60,422 bases of DNA from Candidatus Omnitrophota bacterium (GCA_043814605.1 JBDRJV010000027.1:1-60422); one strand, 5' to 3'; positions 5,312 to 47,526 are shown, counted from the stretch's first letter. A program made the numbers and translations. The notes: a model not told the origin generated them from the sequence alone.

Positions 5312-6460
5312 TTAGCCGCCAAATGCTTTTTTTAGTTTTTCAGAAATAGATCCGTTTTGAATATCTTCCCCTCTTAATTTTGCAAATTCTAATAATAATT
5401 TCTTTTCCCGTTCGGATAAATTAACCGGCACACTAACATGAACCTGCACAAATTGATCTCCTTTTTTATACCCGCGTAAATCTGTAAACCCTTTACCGTT
5501 AATTCGAAATACCTTTTCACTTTGCGTACCGGCGGGAATTTTCATTTTAATTTTTCCCTCGTATAAAGTAGGCACTTGAATTTCAGTGCCTAAAGCTGCT
5601 TGCACAAAACTGATTGATTTCTTGCAGTAAATATCATTACGATGCCTTTCGAAAATCTTATGTTTTTTCAGCCGAATTAATATATATAAATCACCGCGCG
5701 GGCCGTCTCGCGTTCCGGCTTCTCCTTCGCCGCGTACACGTAAATGCGAACCGGAATCAACTCCTGCGGGGACTTTAACATTTATTTTTCTTTGTACGCT
5801 CACCTTTCCTGTACCGCGGCAGCTTTTGCAAGGATTAGTAATAATTACTCCCTCACCGCGGCAGCTATCACAAGTCCGGGCAATGGTAAAAAACCCTGCG
5901 GATTGCCCAACTTGTCCGGATCCTTTACAGGCAGGACAAGTAATCTTTTTTGTTCCGGATTGAGCTCCTTCTCCATTACAGGCAGAACATACTTCTTTAC
6001 GGTTTATGGCAATACTTTTTTCTATACCCGCCGCTGCTTCTTCAAATTCAAGTGCCAATTCGTATTCTAAATCTGCGCCGCGCCGCGGACCGCCCCGTGA
6101 ACGTCTTGAACCTGAGAATCCAAATCCGGAAAAAATATCTTCAAAAATACCGCCGCCGCTAAAACCCATTTCCTCAAATATTGAACTAAAATCTGCACCG
6201 CGGAAAATATCTTCTTCACTGTATTGGTTATCAATTCCCGCATGGCCAAAACGATCATATTGCGCACGCTTATTCGTATCTGATAAAACCGCATAAGCCT
6301 CGGAAATTTCTTTAAATTTTTCTTCTGATTCTTTACGTTTATCTCCTGAGACACGGTCCGGATGATATTTCATCGCCAGTTTACGGTATGTTTTTTTGAT
6401 TTCATCAACGGAAGCATTTTTTTCAACACCCAGTATTTCATAATAATCCCGTTTTGTCAT
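5312..6460 (-). CDS. dnaJ: Molecular chaperone DnaJ
   Basis: J-domain (YYEILGV...HPD), G/F region and four CxxCxGxG zinc-finger repeats. The ATG at 6460 with an AGGA SD is preferred over the upstream GTG at 6484. Confidence 0.95.
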
Positions 6461-32199: not shown

Positions 32200-32421
32200 T
32201 TATATTCTGGCAATAACCCTTTTTTTAGCTCGATCCGCACTAATTAGCGGTAATTCATAACCCGTTCTTTTAACCGCTTTAATCATGCGGCAATAGGCAA
32301 CATTTGGGGTTGCACCCTCAGTAAGATTATTCAAACAAATTGCTGCATATCCGCGGCGATTAATAATTTTAAAAATTCTTACTTTTTGTGAAGATATTTT
32401 TCTTAACACCTTTTTTTTCAT
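32200..32421 (-). CDS. Small basic protein (73 aa), function unknown, behind a long structured leader
   Basis: The ATG at 32421 is preceded by the SD AAAGGAGGG. The first 9 codons of the track ORF are leader sequence shared with gdhA. Confidence 0.55.
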   Translation of the reverse strand: MKKKVLRKISSQKVRIFKIINRRGYAAICLNNLTEGATPNVAYCRMIKAVKRTGYELPLISADRAKKRVIARI

Positions 32422-32433
32422 ACCCCCTCCTTT

Positions 32434-32511
32434 AAATGAGCACATCACTTATAGAGCATAAGCGACACAAGTGATCTGTGCGCCTGTCCGCCAGGTTTTA
32501 TGGCGGGAATT
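32434..32511 (-). repeat. Leader motif unit, proximal copy (78 nt, identical to 32574-32651)
   Basis: Exact direct repeat, compared base by base. Confidence 0.9.
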
Positions 32512-32573
32512 TATCCCGGATTTTTGTGTTTAGAATTTCACAAGAAATTCGAGCACAGTCTAAAATACTGGGA

Positions 32574-32651
32574 AAATGAGCACATCACTTATAGAGCATA
32601 AGCGACACAAGTGATCTGTGCGCCTGTCCGCCAGGTTTTATGGCGGGAATT
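32574..32651 (-). repeat. Leader motif unit, distal copy (78 nt, identical to 32434-32511)
   Basis: Exact direct repeat, compared base by base. Confidence 0.9.
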
Positions 32652-32745
32652 CCCTGAGAAATCCACAGGATTTCCAGGGCTTTAGTTCCGGGAATCATTT
32701 TGATTCCTCAAAGCTTCTTTGAATATTTTTTATTACTTTAGATTT

Positions 32746-33069
32746 TTAAGTTTTTTTATTTTTAATTTTTAAAACTTTTTTCTTTTCCCTTTCTAAAGCT
32801 TCTGATAATATAACCAGTTTTTTATTCAAATTATCAATTTGCTTTTGAGAATTTTTTACAACATTTAAAGAAATATTCTTTATTTTTTTCTCAAGTTCCT
32901 GATCTAGCTTTTTTGTCCCTTTAAGCAGCCGGTTAAGCACTGCCTTTTTATCTTTGGCCTTAATTTGACCTTTAGTGATTAACAATTCCACCAAAGCTTC
33001 GGCTTTTTCTTTAGTTAAATTTGCTAATCCTACTCCAGCTAAAATAATCTTTTCCAGCACCTCAAACAT
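32746..33069 (-). CDS. Phasin-family (PHA granule-associated, COG3937-like) protein
   Basis: 107 aa. The N-terminus (ILAGVGLANLTKEKAEALVELLITKG) is typical of the family, and a strong SD (AAAGGAGGAAG) precedes it. Confidence 0.6.
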   Translation of the reverse strand: MFEVLEKIILAGVGLANLTKEKAEALVELLITKGQIKAKDKKAVLNRLLKGTKKLDQELEKKIKNISLNVVKNSQKQIDNLNKKLVILSEALEREKKKVLKIKNKKT

Positions 33070-34539: not shown

Positions 34540-35364
34540 TTACATTTTATTACTTAGTGCTAAAATAATCGTGATAATTGCCATACTAAAACAATAATAT
34601 GCAAAATAATAAAATTTTGCACGCTTAATTATTTTTGATAAAATTATTAAAGCCAGATATCCACTTAAAAATGCAATCACAAAACTTATGCTCAAAATTA
34701 TAAAACTGATGTTTAATTCACCCCACCCGCATTTAAGTTTATAACCTGTTGCCCCAATTATCGTTGGGACAGCCAGTAAAAATGAGAACTTTGCGCATTT
34801 TTCCCGATTTATACCTTGTAATAATCCCGCGGAAATTGTTAAGCCAGAGCGGGAAATACCCGGAATAATTGCTATTGCCTGGGCAATGCCGATTAAAAAA
34901 GTATTTATAAAATTTAATTCTTTTAATTCTTTATGAGATTTTTTAAACTTAGTCATAAATAAAACAAATCCAGTAATAAAAAAACTACCTGCTAATATTT
35001 TTGCAGAATTAAATAGATTTTCAATTAAATCATGCAAAAAAAATCCCACTAAAAATATCGGGATCAGGGCAAATGTAATTAAAACAATTAACCTTAGGTG
35101 AATATAATTTTGCCATATTTGCTTTAGCGGTTTATTTTTTGATAAATCAATTAATCCTAAGAAAAATTCCTCAAAAATTTCTTTTATTTCCATCCGCAAA
35201 AAAATAATCACTGCCAAAGCAGTAGCTAAATGCAAAATTATATCAAAGCAGAACAGCGGTTCTTTAAAACCAAACAGCATTTGGAAAAAAGCTAAATGCC
35301 CGGAACTGGAAACCGGTAAAAATTCAGTCAGGCCTTGAATAAACGCTAAAAAAAAATATTCCAT
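34540..35364 (-). CDS. uppP: Undecaprenyl-diphosphate phosphatase
   Basis: 274 aa polytopic membrane protein with the BacA motifs (QGLTEFLPVSSSGH, PGISRSG). Confidence 0.9.
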   Translation of the reverse strand: MEYFFLAFIQGLTEFLPVSSSGHLAFFQMLFGFKEPLFCFDIILHLATALAVIIFLRMEIKEIFEEFFLGLIDLSKNKPLKQIWQNYIHLRLIVLITFALIPIFLVGFFLHDLIENLFNSAKILAGSFFITGFVLFMTKFKKSHKELKELNFINTFLIGIAQAIAIIPGISRSGLTISAGLLQGINREKCAKFSFLLAVPTIIGATGYKLKCGWGELNISFIILSISFVIAFLSGYLALIILSKIIKRAKFYYFAYYCFSMAIITIILALSNKM

Positions 35365-37143: not shown

Positions 37144-37842
37144 TTATTTTTTGTTCTTGATTTCAAAAGACAGGATAATTGCTTCCGCAATATCCTTCAT
37201 CGGCAGGCGTTTACTCATACTCGTTTTTCTTAATAAATTATATGCTTTTTCTTCACTGAGATTTTGTTCTTTCATCAAGATACCTTTTGCTTTTTCTACT
37301 TTTTTTCTCGCTTCTAATTCTTCCTGGATGACTTTAGTTTTCACAATCAACTCTGTATTTTCTATCGCCACTGCTGCCTGATTAGCAATCGTACTGACGA
37401 GGTCAATATCGCTTTTGCCAAATTTATATTCAGATGTTGTATAACAATTAATTACACCGATGACTTTATTTTTAACCATCATCGGAACGCTAAGCATAGA
37501 AACAAGGTTTTCTTTCTTAGCTAAAATTTTCTCTTTATATTTTTTATCTTTTTGGACATTTATAATTAAATTGGGTTTTTTTGTCATCGCCACTAAACCC
37601 ACAATTCCTTCCCCCACTTTTATACTTCTTTCCTTTAAATATTCGCTGCTCATCGCTTGAGTTGCTTTAATTTTAAGTTCCTGAGTTTTTTCATCCAGTA
37701 ACCATAGCGCACAAATTTTTGCTTTCATTACATTAGCAGTTAAAGTTACAATCAGTTTGAGCATATCTTCTAAATAAAGATCACTGGTGATCGCATTGCT
37801 GATTTTACTTAATGCGGCTATGTATTTTTTTTCTGATTTCAT
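37144..37842 (-). CDS. GAF-domain / ANTAR-domain RNA-binding antitermination regulator
   Basis: 232 aa with an N-terminal GAF domain and a C-terminal ANTAR helix bundle (ELEARKKVEKAKGILMKEQNLSEEKAYNLLRKTSMSKRLPMKDIAEAI). It lies 23 nt downstream of pyrG. Confidence 0.8.
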   Translation of the reverse strand: MKSEKKYIAALSKISNAITSDLYLEDMLKLIVTLTANVMKAKICALWLLDEKTQELKIKATQAMSSEYLKERSIKVGEGIVGLVAMTKKPNLIINVQKDKKYKEKILAKKENLVSMLSVPMMVKNKVIGVINCYTTSEYKFGKSDIDLVSTIANQAAVAIENTELIVKTKVIQEELEARKKVEKAKGILMKEQNLSEEKAYNLLRKTSMSKRLPMKDIAEAIILSFEIKNKK

Positions 37843-41127: not shown

Positions 41128-44100
41128 TTAGGAATTCTTAATATATTCCTGAATTGGGGTTACCGTAAAATCATTCCTCATTCTTGATTCAATACCATTA
41201 ACTGCTGCTTGTGCACCCTGAATAGTCGTAATACAGGGAATTCCATGCATTACTGCGGCATTGCGAATCGGCTTCATATCCGATTGTCCCTTTGGACCAG
41301 TAGGAGTATTAATTACCAATTTTATCTCCCCAGTTTTTATTAAATCTAAAATTTCTGAACTGCCTTCACTGATCTTTTTCACACTTTGGGCTTTTATATT
41401 ATTTGAATTAAGCACTTTATATGTCCCTTTTGTCGCAATTAATTTAAATCCCAAATTAAAAAGCTTTTTTGCCACAAATACAATATCTCTTTTATCATCA
41501 TTTTTTACACTGATGAATATTTTACCTTTTTTCGGTAAAAAAGAGCCGGCTGCAATCTGAGATTTATAAAAAGCAATATCAAAAGATCTATCGATCCCCA
41601 TAACTTCCCCGGTTGATTTCATTTCCGGGCCTAAAATAATATCCACACCGGAAAAACGGGAAAAAGGCAGTACAGATTCTTTTACAGCAACGTGTTCAAT
41701 TTTTTTCTCCGTAGTTATGCCTAATTCTGATAATTTCTTCCCGGACATAATTTTTGCCGCAATCTTAGCCAAGGGTACACCGGTGGCTTTAGAAACAAAA
41801 GGTGCTGTACGCGAAGCCCGCGGATTAACTTCCAACACATAAACAGTATTATTTTTCACGGCAAATTGTATATTAATAAGGCCTTTGACTTTTAATTCCT
41901 GCGATAAAACTACAGTACATTTTCTGATATTATCAATTATTTCATCATCTAGAGTATGCGGCGGAATTACACACGCAGAATCGCCGGAATGCACACCTGC
42001 TTCTTCGATATGTTCCATTATTCCGCCAATCACTGTATTTTCTCCGTCAGATAAAGCATCAACATCAACTTCAACTGCACCTTCTAAAAATTTATCGATT
42101 AAAATTGGTTTTTCCGGAGATACATCTACAGCTTCCTGCATAAATTTTTCTAATTCCTGTTGCTGATAAACAATCCGCATTGCCCGTCCGCCCAAAACAT
42201 AAGAAGGCCGGACCAAAACCGGATAGCCAATTTCTTGTGCAATACTAATTGCTTGTTTAAGCGAAGTTGCTGAACCATTCGGCGGCTGATTAATATTTAA
42301 TTTTTTAATAAGTTTGGCAAATTTATCCCGGTTCTCAGCCCGGTCAATTGATTCAACAGATGTACCAATTATCGGCGCTCCGGCATCAGAGAGTTCTTTT
42401 GCTAAATTTAATGGCGTCTGCCCGCCAAACTGCACAATAATTCCGTCCGGCTTTTCTTTATCCACAATATTCATCACATCTTCAAATGTTAAAGGCTCAA
42501 AATAAAGTTTATCCGAAGTATCATAATCTGTAGAAACAGTTTCCGGATTAGAATTAACCATTATTGTCTCATACCCTAATTCTTTTAATGCAAATGCTGC
42601 ATGACAACAACAGTAATCAAATTCTATGCCCTGTCCAATACGGTTAGGCCCTCCTCCTAAAATCATAATTTTTTTCTTATGGGAAACCCGCATTTCATCT
42701 TCTGTTTCATAAGTAGAATAATAATAGGGGGTATAAGCTTCAAATTCCGCAGCACATGTATCCACTAATTTATAAGTCGGGATAATCCCTGTTTTCTTAC
42801 GGTAATTTCTGACACTAATCTCATCGGAATCAATTAGTTGGGCAATTTGTCTATCACTAAATCCATACTGTTTGGCTTGGAGTAATAATTCTGAATCAAA
42901 ATTATTTATCCCCTGCTTTGTTTTGTACTGCTTAATTTTATCTTCCAGTTCAACTATTTGTAAAATATTATCTAAAAACCAAAGATCAATTTTTGTGATT
43001 TCAGCAATCTTCTTTATACTCATACCTTTCTGCAAGGCATATTTAATATAAAAAATTCTCGAAGCATTTGGTTCTTTTAAACGATGCAGAAGTTTTTCTT
43101 CGTCAATTTCATTGAAATCTTGTTTATTATCTAAGCCAATATGTTCAATTTCCAATCCGCGTAATCCTTTTTGTAACGCCTCTTTAAATGTACGGCCAAT
43201 TGCCATTGTCTCGCCTACAGACTTCATTGAAATTCCTAAAATATCCTTAGCTTCCGGGAATTTCTCAAAAGTAAACCGCGGAATTTTCACCACACAATAG
43301 TCAATCGTTGGTTCAAAAGAAGCCGGGGTTTCTTGGGTAATATCATTACAGATTTCATCCAGTGTATAACCTACGGCAAGTTTTGCCGCAAATTTTGCAA
43401 TGGGAAACCCCGTGGCTTTACTGGCTAAGGCGGATGAGCGGGAAACACGCGGGTTCATTTCAATAACAACCATTCTCCCTGTAGCCGGGTTAACCGCAAA
43501 CTGGATATTGGAACCGCCGGTTTCCACTCCAATTTCACGGATAATTGCCAAAGATGCATCACGCATTTTTTGATACTCTCTATCCGTTAATGTCTGCGCC
43601 GGAGCCACAGTTATGGAATCGCCAGTATGAATACCCATAGGATCAAAATTTTCAATTGAGCAAACAATTACTACATTATCTTTTTTATCCCGCATTACTT
43701 CCAGTTCATACTCTTTCCAGCCTAAAATTGATTCCTCAACTAAAATTTCACTGATCATGCTATTTTTTAGACCTAAATCCGCAATGCTTATAAATTCTTC
43801 TTCAGTTGTCGCAATGCCGCCGCCTGTACCTCCGAGTGTAAAACTGGGTCTAATAATCAACGGCAGGCCGATTTCTTTCAACGCTGCTTTTGCCTCGGCC
43901 ATATTATAAGCTAAAGCACTTCTGGGTAAATCTAACCCAATTTTCTGCATTGCTTCTTTAAAATATTTTCTATCTTCAGCTTTTTGGATTGCTTTGGTAT
44001 TCGCACCAATCATTTTTACATTATATTTTTTTAATATTCCTAGTTCTGCGGCCTTCATTGCTGTATTTAATCCGGTTTGTCCGCCTAATGTCGGTAATAT

Positions 44101-45727: not shown

Positions 45728-47408
<1,681 letters not shown>

Positions 47409-47490
47409 ATAATAAAATAAAAAAAGACATTTCCTCCTTGTTCAGGAAACGTCTTTGTTTCTTCCATATACAATACAAACATTGTATTGT
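47409..47490 (-). promoter_or_regulatory. ANTAR-type dual-hexaloop antiterminator overlapping an intrinsic terminator (gdhA leader)
   Basis: P1 is ACAAUAC[AAUGUU]GUAUUGU and P2 is GAAAC[AAAGAC]GUUUC. The 3' half of P2 forms the 5' arm of a 13-bp terminator stem that is followed by a U-tract. Confidence 0.65.
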
Positions 47491-47497
47491 GAAAATA

Positions 47498-47526
47498 AGC
47501 TTATCAAAATTCAAAAATATTGTCAA
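47498..47526 (-). promoter_or_regulatory. Candidate sigma70-type promoter of gdhA
   Basis: Minus strand reads TTGACA (47526-47521)-N17-TAAGCT (47503-47498). P1 begins 7 nt downstream. Confidence 0.5.

Follow-up and report, generated by a model that had tools for sequence, protein, structure and literature searches.

The 325-nt spacer in front of a small conserved ORF (73 aa) in a stretch of Candidatus Omnitrophota DNA contains copies of a structured repeat that forms a multi-copy family in this phylum: its members show covariation, are dispersed among mixed gene neighbors, and are polymorphic for insertion. We consider it likely, though well short of certain, that the spacer arose by insertion of a non-autonomous dispersed palindromic repeat, of the REP/BIME or MITE kind, which is co-transcribed as a leader hairpin. 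Judged against Rfam 15 and the searchable literature, the element is a previously undescribed repeat family.

The stretch that was analyzed, called the window here, is 60,422 nt long, and four units lie in it, two before the 73-aa ORF and two before gdhA. Two covariance models were used: R1, built from the four window units, and R2, the model of the family. The features that matter for the argument are the following.

32746-33069, minus strand: phasin-like gene (107 aa), supported by synteny with relatives
32680-32721, minus strand: what looks, by sequence comparison with composites, like a degenerate, truncated left (B') arm of a composite
32652-32679, minus strand: central hairpin CCCUGGAAAUCC-ugu-GGAUUUCUCAGGG, from the fold; same architecture in L163, L160, L166 and others
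32574-32651, minus strand: distal unit, 100% identical to the proximal one (exact repeat, models R1 and R2)
32512-32573, minus strand: inter-unit spacer of 62 nt, from the sequence
32434-32511, minus strand: proximal unit, of A type (exact repeat, fold, R1 74.5 bits, R2 33.7 bits with E = 2e-5)
32507-32511, minus strand: AAUUC of the proximal unit
32488-32506, minus strand: inserted hairpin CCGCCAuaaaaccUGGCGG of the proximal unit
32482-32487, minus strand: ACAGGC of the proximal unit
32440-32481, minus strand: main hairpin GCAC-AG-AUCACUU...AAGUGAU-GUGC of the proximal unit
32435-32439, minus strand: tail UCAUU of the proximal unit
32419-32433, minus strand: apparently native Shine-Dalgarno (SD) sequence AAAGGAGGGGG (32423-32433) and AUG (32419-32421); a comparable SD is found in element-free relatives
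32200-32421, minus strand: basic, conserved hypothetical protein of 73 aa (homologues, no Pfam domain)
47310-47366, minus strand: gdhA-distal unit (R2 46.1 bits, alignment with the ORF unit)
47127-47185, minus strand: gdhA-proximal unit, box GGGAUAAAUUC, stems GUGC/GCAC (R2 66.6 bits, E = 2e-13)

The two units before the 73-aa ORF form an exact 78-nt direct repeat with a start-to-start distance of 140 nt, and read AAUUC-CCGCCAuaaaaccUGGCGG-ACAGGC-GCAC-AG-AUCACUU-(18 nt)-AAGUGAU-GUGC-UCAUUU on the minus strand. Energy minimization predicts their main hairpin (-18 kcal/mol, z = -3.0; none of 200 shuffles folds as well), and the 47-nt core occurs twice in the window against zero expected. The initial annotation had described this repeat, the hairpin with its 18-nt loop followed by UCAUU, and a preceding CCGCC hairpin and ACAGGCG string, the latter also present in the gdhA-distal unit; sequence and fold bear out all of this. 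It was equally right about the pre-start sequence shared with gdhA (CTCATTTAAAGGAGG is found only before these two genes), about the spurious N-termini that result in ORF lists (MMCSFKGG... and MHSFKGG...), and in seeing the same kind of element at both places, since a single covariance model, R1, recovers all four units and nothing more in the window. Two additional hairpins that it had noted exist, at approximate coordinates; we place them at 32652-32679 (strong), 32691-32709 and 32709-32721. Its claim of a recent tandem duplication stands in part. The two units are recent copies of each other, but the 78-nt identity stops exactly at the limits of a family unit (AAUUC...UCAUUU), the flanks are unrelated, and TRF gives no 140-nt period, so that a plain 140-nt tandem duplication is rejected and a unit-wise copy is indicated instead. 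The 62-nt spacer is no more similar to the region upstream of the distal unit than shuffles are.

Within this spacer lie a small hairpin, GAAUUUCuuguGAAAUUC, and the 3' side of the helix at the base of the distal unit. The tail of the distal unit runs on as UUUUCCC, which could pair with a GGGAA box on its own 5' side, and GGGAUA, part of the box of the proximal unit, lies inside the spacer at 32512-32517. An anti-SD role for the C-rich strings after distal units was considered and discarded, since their pairing with the GGGA box, as the 3' side of the basal helix (P0), accounts for them better. On the upstream side, the CCC...GGG of the central hairpin at 32652-32679 closes straight onto AAUUC, as in composites of other contigs; beyond it, the putative B' arm at 32680-32721, missed by model R2, reads CAAAGAAGCUUUG, GAGGAAUCaaaauGAUUCC, CGGAACUAAAG, the family counterpart being GUGAGGAC...GUCC-GAACUUAUCCC. 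On the downstream side, the proximal unit ends 1 nt before the AAAGGAGGGGG-U-AUG of the 73-aa ORF, and the SD sequence, to judge from the relatives, is outside the element and native to the ORF.

The ORF units align with the gdhA-distal unit, including the CCGCC hairpin and ACAGGCG; the inserted hairpin of the former has its homologue in the 5' extension of the latter, CCCCGCCuaaaaacaGCGGG-ACAGGCG. The ORF units appear to have lost their own box through an 11-12-nt deletion, which fits their lower R2 score (34 bits versus 67 for the gdhA-proximal unit, of the window's copies the closest to the family consensus). The outer stems are GCAC/GUGC in the ORF units, and swapped to GUGC/GCAC in the gdhA units, for which the leader sequence gives 47127-47179 and 47310-47360.

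Judging by its 40 homologues (58-110 aa, 53-79% identity), the 73-aa ORF is a real conserved gene; those homologues that carry organism names are all from Candidatus Omnitrophota, and none of the 40 shows a Pfam domain. Six related loci (L001-L006) keep the order rluA-uppP-glgC-phasin-like gene(s)-73-aa ORF-216-aa ORF-Na/Pi cotransporter-mgtE. In these relatives the 73-aa ORF starts 13 nt past the phasin-like gene, or 33 nt past glgC, so that the 325-nt spacer of the window is lineage-specific, and a repeat unit before the ORF is absent from all six. The 13-nt gap suggests that the phasin-like gene and the 73-aa ORF probably form one operon; as the gene strand of the spacer has no promoter-like or terminator-like site, the ORF is probably still co-transcribed with the phasin-like gene in the window. 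Exact-protein look-ups for near-identical strains returned nothing on record. The number of phasin-like genes before the ORF varies: one in the window (32746-33069) and L004, two adjacent paralogues (95-113 aa) in L003, L005 and L006, and none in L001.

To define the family beyond the window, R1 was run on other loci, where it picked up L017 and L012. A degenerate pattern, AATTYN{0,30}GNNSMKAYNAYTTN{10,34}AARTNRTSNNCTCATT, which describes the known units and does not impose base pairing, matches the four window units and, in 93 other loci, a single copy, that of L012. JGI metagenome contigs contain at least 120 matching stretches, so the motif is not confined to two loci of one genome; among the 136 metagenome matches listed, 112 have perfect 4/4 and 7/7 stem pairs. 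An association with viruses was rejected, viral contigs having yielded just two pattern matches, AT-rich and chance-like. The family model R2 finds 166 copies in 546 kb (100 contigs among those listed), many of them head-to-head pairs and some in tandem. The other loci, 965 kb of which roughly one quarter is Omnitrophota sequence, contain only two R2 matches, which points to a patchy distribution. The window, L012 and L160 are all from Omnitrophota, and every named homologue of the NusG of L160, a contig with four copies, is from the same phylum. Rfam 15 gave nothing relevant for the window copies at gathering thresholds or at E <= 10, and no relevant match at E <= 0.1 for 12 loci with canonical copies; a known RNA family was rejected, as only tRNAs and noise were returned, and full-text literature searches, like Rfam 15, yielded nothing resembling such an element.

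In the window, R2 also gives weak matches (E about 1) at 42293-42337 and 34767-34813, both on the minus strand and the latter inside the uppP gene, which consist of box and tail with the internal hairpin absent (for example, CGGGAUAAAUUUG-5 nt-CUUAUUAAAAAA); they may reflect chance, or be what is left of units that decayed or were excised.

A unit is about 80 nt long. Its outermost helix, P0 (5 bp), joins the box GGGAUWAAUUC to the tail UCAUUWA; an invariant UC/UC internal loop separates P0 from P1, which has 4 bp of free sequence and is followed by a 2-nt bulge (AU, AG or CU), then by P2, a conserved 10-bp helix (AYAAYUUAYG/CRUAARUURU), by a second, mostly UC/UC loop, and by a variable tip. 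Each unit has about 22-27 stacked base pairs, with internal loops. This fold was assessed on an alignment of 94 sequences (92 metagenome units and the two gdhA units). As the metagenome set was fetched with a pattern taken from the window, conservation at the pattern positions is circular; the box-tail helix and P2b lie outside the pattern, and therefore provide independent confirmation of the fold. With the four-helix model, 94.4% of the cells pair, versus 28-44% when partner columns are slid. Seven pairs co-vary, each with two to four Watson-Crick types: 14-84 (AU 35, UA 35, CG 7), 21-77, 22-76 (CG 35, GC 34, AU 21), 27-73 (UA 59, CG 35, zero unpaired), 28-72, 30-70 and 35-66. Pairing is almost purely Watson-Crick, with 12 G·U versus 14 A·C among some 1790 stem cells, which, together with the occurrence of units as reverse complements, argues for selection on a DNA palindrome or on both strands, and not on one RNA strand.

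Units are found single, in tandem, or as inverted pairs around the CCC...GGG central hairpin, and many contigs have head-to-head A/B pairs 10-40 nt apart around it. The partner B units, which end in ACUUA, are the reverse-complement form of the element and give it dyad symmetry. On the gene strand a composite reads stop-UAAGUGAG-(B' hairpin)-GAACUUAUCCC-(central CCC...GGG hairpin)-AUUAAUUC-(A hairpin)-UCAUU-(SD)-AUG; it is a dyad of about 200 nt, with ends resembling terminal inverted repeats (TAAGTGAG...CTCATTA), that fills the gap between two genes. Membership in this family explains the exact repeat, the extra hairpins, the C-rich strings and the look-alike pre-start sequence of the window. 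Upstream of rpsP, L186 has a perfect tandem array of unit plus spacer with a 121-nt period (2629-2883, 2.1 copies, 100% identical), indicating that tandem amplification of units recurs in the family.

The genes downstream of units are unrelated housekeeping genes (hisH, hisF, glmS, guaA, nusG, rplC, rpsC, rpmE, ruvA, accC, pilB-like), and several units abut tRNAs on either strand. Units lie flush against start codons, stop codons and tRNAs. Among A-tail units (n = 112), 62% have the start of a long ORF within 40 nt on the same strand and 36% the end of an opposite-strand gene within 40 nt; the corresponding values are 23% and 65% for B-tail units (n = 26), and 30% and 11% for random positions (n = 3000). 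Tails thus face the neighboring genes and boxes face inward, with a strong orientation bias of A tails toward start codons and B tails toward stop codons.

Presence/absence polymorphism was observed at three independent sets of orthologous sites: at the 73-aa ORF, at gdhA, and at rpmG/tRNA-Trp with secE/nusG. In the last set, L160 has four units, arranged as inverted pairs at rpmG/tRNA-Trp and at secE/nusG, and no unit occurs in the 20.5 kb of either orthologous locus, L214 (96% NusG identity) or L215. At the empty site secE and nusG overlap (TTTAAATGAAG); the filled site of L160 reads TTTAAGTGAGGAC...(about 165 nt)...GGGCTCATTAAATGAAG, so that the left end of the element recreates the Lys-stop of secE while the original start context survives at the right end. 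Filled and empty sites, which come from different strains, gave no unambiguous target-site duplication: TAA or TTAA is possibly duplicated at secE/nusG, and no duplication is visible at rpmG/tRNA-Trp, these strains being non-identical. A phmmer screen of 2310 ORF segments from contigs (about 600 kb) with IS200/RAYT seeds had zero matches; this is a weak test, such genes being single-copy per genome. The RAYT of a REP system is a Y1 HUH transposase gene that units usually flank.

A function selected by the host would be equally compatible with the high conservation among copies, the orientation bias, the Lys-stop of secE, and the lack of a transposase or a clear duplication, and such a function could be generic and act on the RNA. 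We think it rather unlikely that the element is a host-selected generic RNA module of intercistronic 'punctuation' or processing. In that view a conserved protein, either a nuclease such as RNase III or an RNA-binding protein, would recognize the hairpins, and the outcome would be cleavage of polycistronic mRNA, protection of the ends so produced, or control over how ribosomes reach the next SD. The flush placement at start codons, stop codons and tRNAs, with its orientation bias, speaks for such a module, but that placement is partly trivial where empty junctions measure 0-30 nt; insertion also keeps the stop and start signals of the flanking genes, yet the element is missing from close relatives at the same junctions and is thus not essential. 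Its 22-27 stacked pairs with invariant internal loops have a geometry that would suit an RNase III-type enzyme, against which stand the Watson-Crick-only pairing, with no excess of G·U on the transcribed strand, and the presence of the element in both orientations. Finally, the consensus is kept beyond synonymous sites, including at the same junction in distant genomes: units preceding hisH, or guaA, share 75-86% identity, against 53-59% for the proteins and 33-42% for third codon positions. However, about four same-gene coincidences are expected by chance (a rough estimate, for about 110 units), so positional recurrence is not decisive, and we rejected the positional conservation at hisH, guaA and rpmE as proof of function, chance giving a similar number of coincidences. 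A more specific form, in which a functional 'gene punctuation' module of Omnitrophota has its UC/UC (GA/GA) loops read by a dedicated protein and is gained and lost between lineages, appears to us quite improbable; if true, it would mean that cistron boundaries are marked for RNA processing or translation control.

The initial annotation had inferred co-regulation from the leader common to gdhA and the small ORF, and this inference fails, since the element precedes unrelated genes, abuts tRNAs, and is lacking at the orthologous sites of relatives; tabulating the gene families that follow the motif gives no regulon. The corresponding explanation, a gene-specific cis-regulatory leader (riboswitch or protein-binding motif) serving one nitrogen-related regulon, is hardly credible. 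It could appeal to the two units directly before the SD at both loci, to the L012 copy between gdhA and an oxidoreductase/type III glutamine synthetase pair, and to glutamine-using genes downstream of units elsewhere (glmS, guaA, hisH). Yet the associated genes are mostly unrelated housekeeping genes or tRNAs, and not the one gene family or pathway expected of a cis-regulatory RNA, and the variable parts are the loop and tip, in which one would look for a ligand pocket. Nor is the leader conserved among orthologues of either gene, a possibility that synteny rules out: the relatives of the 73-aa ORF do not have it, and in a comparison set of 80 gdhA loci from species-representative genomes the covariance models found a unit in the leader of none. 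In that set, one unit lies beside gdhA (in L012, between gdhA and the next gene) and one, in L017, at the contig end, pointing away from gdhA. The core GYRCUCAUU was found within 420 nt upstream of gdhA in none of the 19 closest loci examined, and the gdhA leaders of L088-L093 have no unit. In L012, a metagenome-assembled genome of Omnitrophota, the copy reads GGGAUAAAUUC...GCAG-CU-ACAACUUACG...CGUAAGUUGU-CUGC-UCAUUUA-AUG and precedes the oxidoreductase gene next to gdhA.

Moreover, gdhA already has a different conserved attenuator. In the closest relatives found (GdhA 85-88% identical, same icd-icd-gdhA-carA-carB order), the leader comprises no more than a promoter, a small hairpin, and a GGAAC-AAAGGC-GUUCC...U-run terminator; some 30 nt further comes the SD. 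The gdhA of the window has this attenuator at about 47411-47526, and the units lengthen the stretch from there to the SD by about 290 nt. Relatives without units keep the SD context AAAGGAGGGAAAAUG, so that the 25 nt in which the two genes of the window resemble each other consist of the element's 11-nt tail and a strong SD that is native. We take this conserved leader, by the A1/G4 hexaloop rule, to be a candidate target of ANTAR-type antitermination. Its promoter comprises TTGACA (47521-47526) and TAAGCT (47498-47503), its first hairpin is ACAAUACAAUGUUUGUAUUGU (47470-47490), and its second, GAAAC-AAAGAC-GUUUC (47446-47461), overlaps the 5' half of the U-run terminator, all on the minus strand. 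L088-L090 and L093 have the same attenuator element before gdhA, and L093 has it before carA as well; a GAF+ANTAR protein (ANTAR E = 9e-20) is encoded at 37144-37842 on the minus strand of the window.

The start of gdhA deserves a comment, as two in-frame AUGs, each with its own SD, lie at 47068-47113 (minus strand): the database call is 446 aa long and starts with MSKSKIEQ, and a 461-aa form starts from 47113, directly after the repeat unit. The long form is called in some homologues (459-461 aa, for example in L093). In L093, the nearest relative with the long form, a lone short hairpin, AAUUU-GUGC-UUAAAAAUUAAUCAUUUUUU-GCAC-AUAAAUUAAG, lies between attenuator and SD (5900-5990); missed by both models, it may be a decayed unit.

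A portable promoter cassette, with TWAAUU of the box as -10 and the TTGACA of some central hairpins as -35, each unit driving the gene it faces, is very improbable: some composites do have CCTTGACA-16/17 nt-TTTAAT (for example L160, L099 and L183), and the Correia elements of Neisseria carry outward promoters, but at least 5/6 of TTGACA at 16-18 nt is found in 7 of 140 units and likewise in 7 of 140 for the offset control, none is present on the gene strand of the window spacer, and box-tail covariation shows that selection acts on the box as one side of a helix. A sigma-70 promoter in the box was discarded on this same offset control, and a sigma-54 promoter because the GG/GC spacing misfits -24/-12. 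Analogies with integron attC sites, kink-turns, retrons and IS200 ends were also rejected, as R-box consensus, bulge placement and gene context do not fit.

If the spacer is, as we favor, the insertion of a dispersed palindromic repeat, a composite copy would have landed between the phasin-like gene and the 73-aa ORF, and its left arm would then have decayed; the right unit would have lost its box by the 11-12-nt deletion and then been copied once, unit-precisely, 140 nt downstream. The gdhA leader has related copies between its ANTAR-type attenuator, which is conserved, and its SD. Both spread and uniformity of the family would be brought about at the DNA level, by transposition or by unit-wise recombination through hairpin DNA. 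The operon mRNA would carry the element passively, its long hairpins ending a few nucleotides before the SD, and effects on expression, if any, would presumably be generic - that is, on mRNA processing, stability or ribosome access - with no gene or ligand specificity.

Among known systems, REP, BIME and REPIN elements of Enterobacteria and Pseudomonas are likewise many-copy, extragenic, imperfect palindromes that persist vertically and are structures recognized as hairpin DNA. In BIMEs the two inverted unit types are the Y and Z units. The present element resembles them in its two alternating inverted unit types around a linker and in its tandem amplification. REPINs consist of two inverted REPs separated by a spacer (PMC3337134), and the Omnitrophota element has this inverted-doublet organization. 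A REP unit, however, is a short palindrome of 20-40 bp with a GTAG or CGTC tag at one end (PMC3733652), and the Omnitrophota element lacks these defining features: its units measure about 80 nt, start with GGGAUWAAUUC-G, and have no terminal GTAG/CGTC. It further differs in its two invariant UC/UC (GA/GA) loops, in units flush with start and stop codons, and in that no RAYT was found in the phmmer screen (about 600 kb).

Correia elements of Neisseria, ERIC/IRU of Enterobacteria, and RUP/BOX of Streptococcus are hairpin MITEs found in mRNA, and Correia RNA is cut by RNase III. Such MITEs can alter the expression of neighboring genes. Like them, the Omnitrophota element is non-coding, 100-200 nt long, located in intergenic regions that are probably transcribed, and present or absent between relatives, here at three independent site sets; terminal inverted repeats are represented by the composite ends TAAGTGAG...CTCATTA, the whole element being a dyad. 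Unlike them, it has no clear target-site duplication, and the contigs show no candidate for a parent IS whose ends match; what serves as 'terminal repeat' is in each case a conserved hairpin in its own right, found as a solo unit too, and the consensus extends across Omnitrophota with orthologous proteins 53-59% identical, instead of being limited to one species. Bacterial MITEs have been reviewed (PMC3184786).

Two other comparisons are more distant. The element shares its position between cistrons of operons, its tandem copies, and ends overlapping flanking stop/start signals with the MIRU of mycobacteria; these, reportedly described by Supply and colleagues in 1997, are said to be directly repeated units of 46-100 bp that contain small ORFs and lack a conserved hairpin, whereas the Omnitrophota element is a palindrome with no coding signal. 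The intercistronic RNase III hairpins of phage T7 are long and irregular, have internal loops, and lie directly before the next ribosome-binding site. The likeness is to long irregular intercistronic hairpins with internal loops, here as a predicted fold; there is no sequence relation, and T7 sites are fixed and functional, not a mobile multi-copy family.

For the annotation of the window, these results remove the tempting but wrong inference of a nitrogen-responsive leader common to gdhA and the small ORF; elements of this sort are a common source of false riboswitch candidates, and are useful for strain typing and for the study of genome dynamics. The hosts are members of a phylum that is uncultured and has small, densely packed genomes, in which the ends of the element replace flanking stop and start contexts without disruption. 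The family may reveal a mobilizing enzyme or a generic RNA-processing signal in Omnitrophota.

Variation in unit structure and ends was also observed. In a long variant, the 2-nt bulge is replaced by ACG-(extra hairpin)-CU after a fixed GCAG/CUGC outer stem, which produces a three-way junction; it is found in L101, L102, L133, L139, L156, L160, L189 and others. At L125 (5135-5213), L126 (555-646) and L180 (3743-3822), the tail continues as UCAUUUGACCUCC, which on the opposite strand is GGAGGUCAAAUGA, an SD plus AUG, so that in these three cases, on sequence grounds, the unit end may overlap an opposite-strand start codon.
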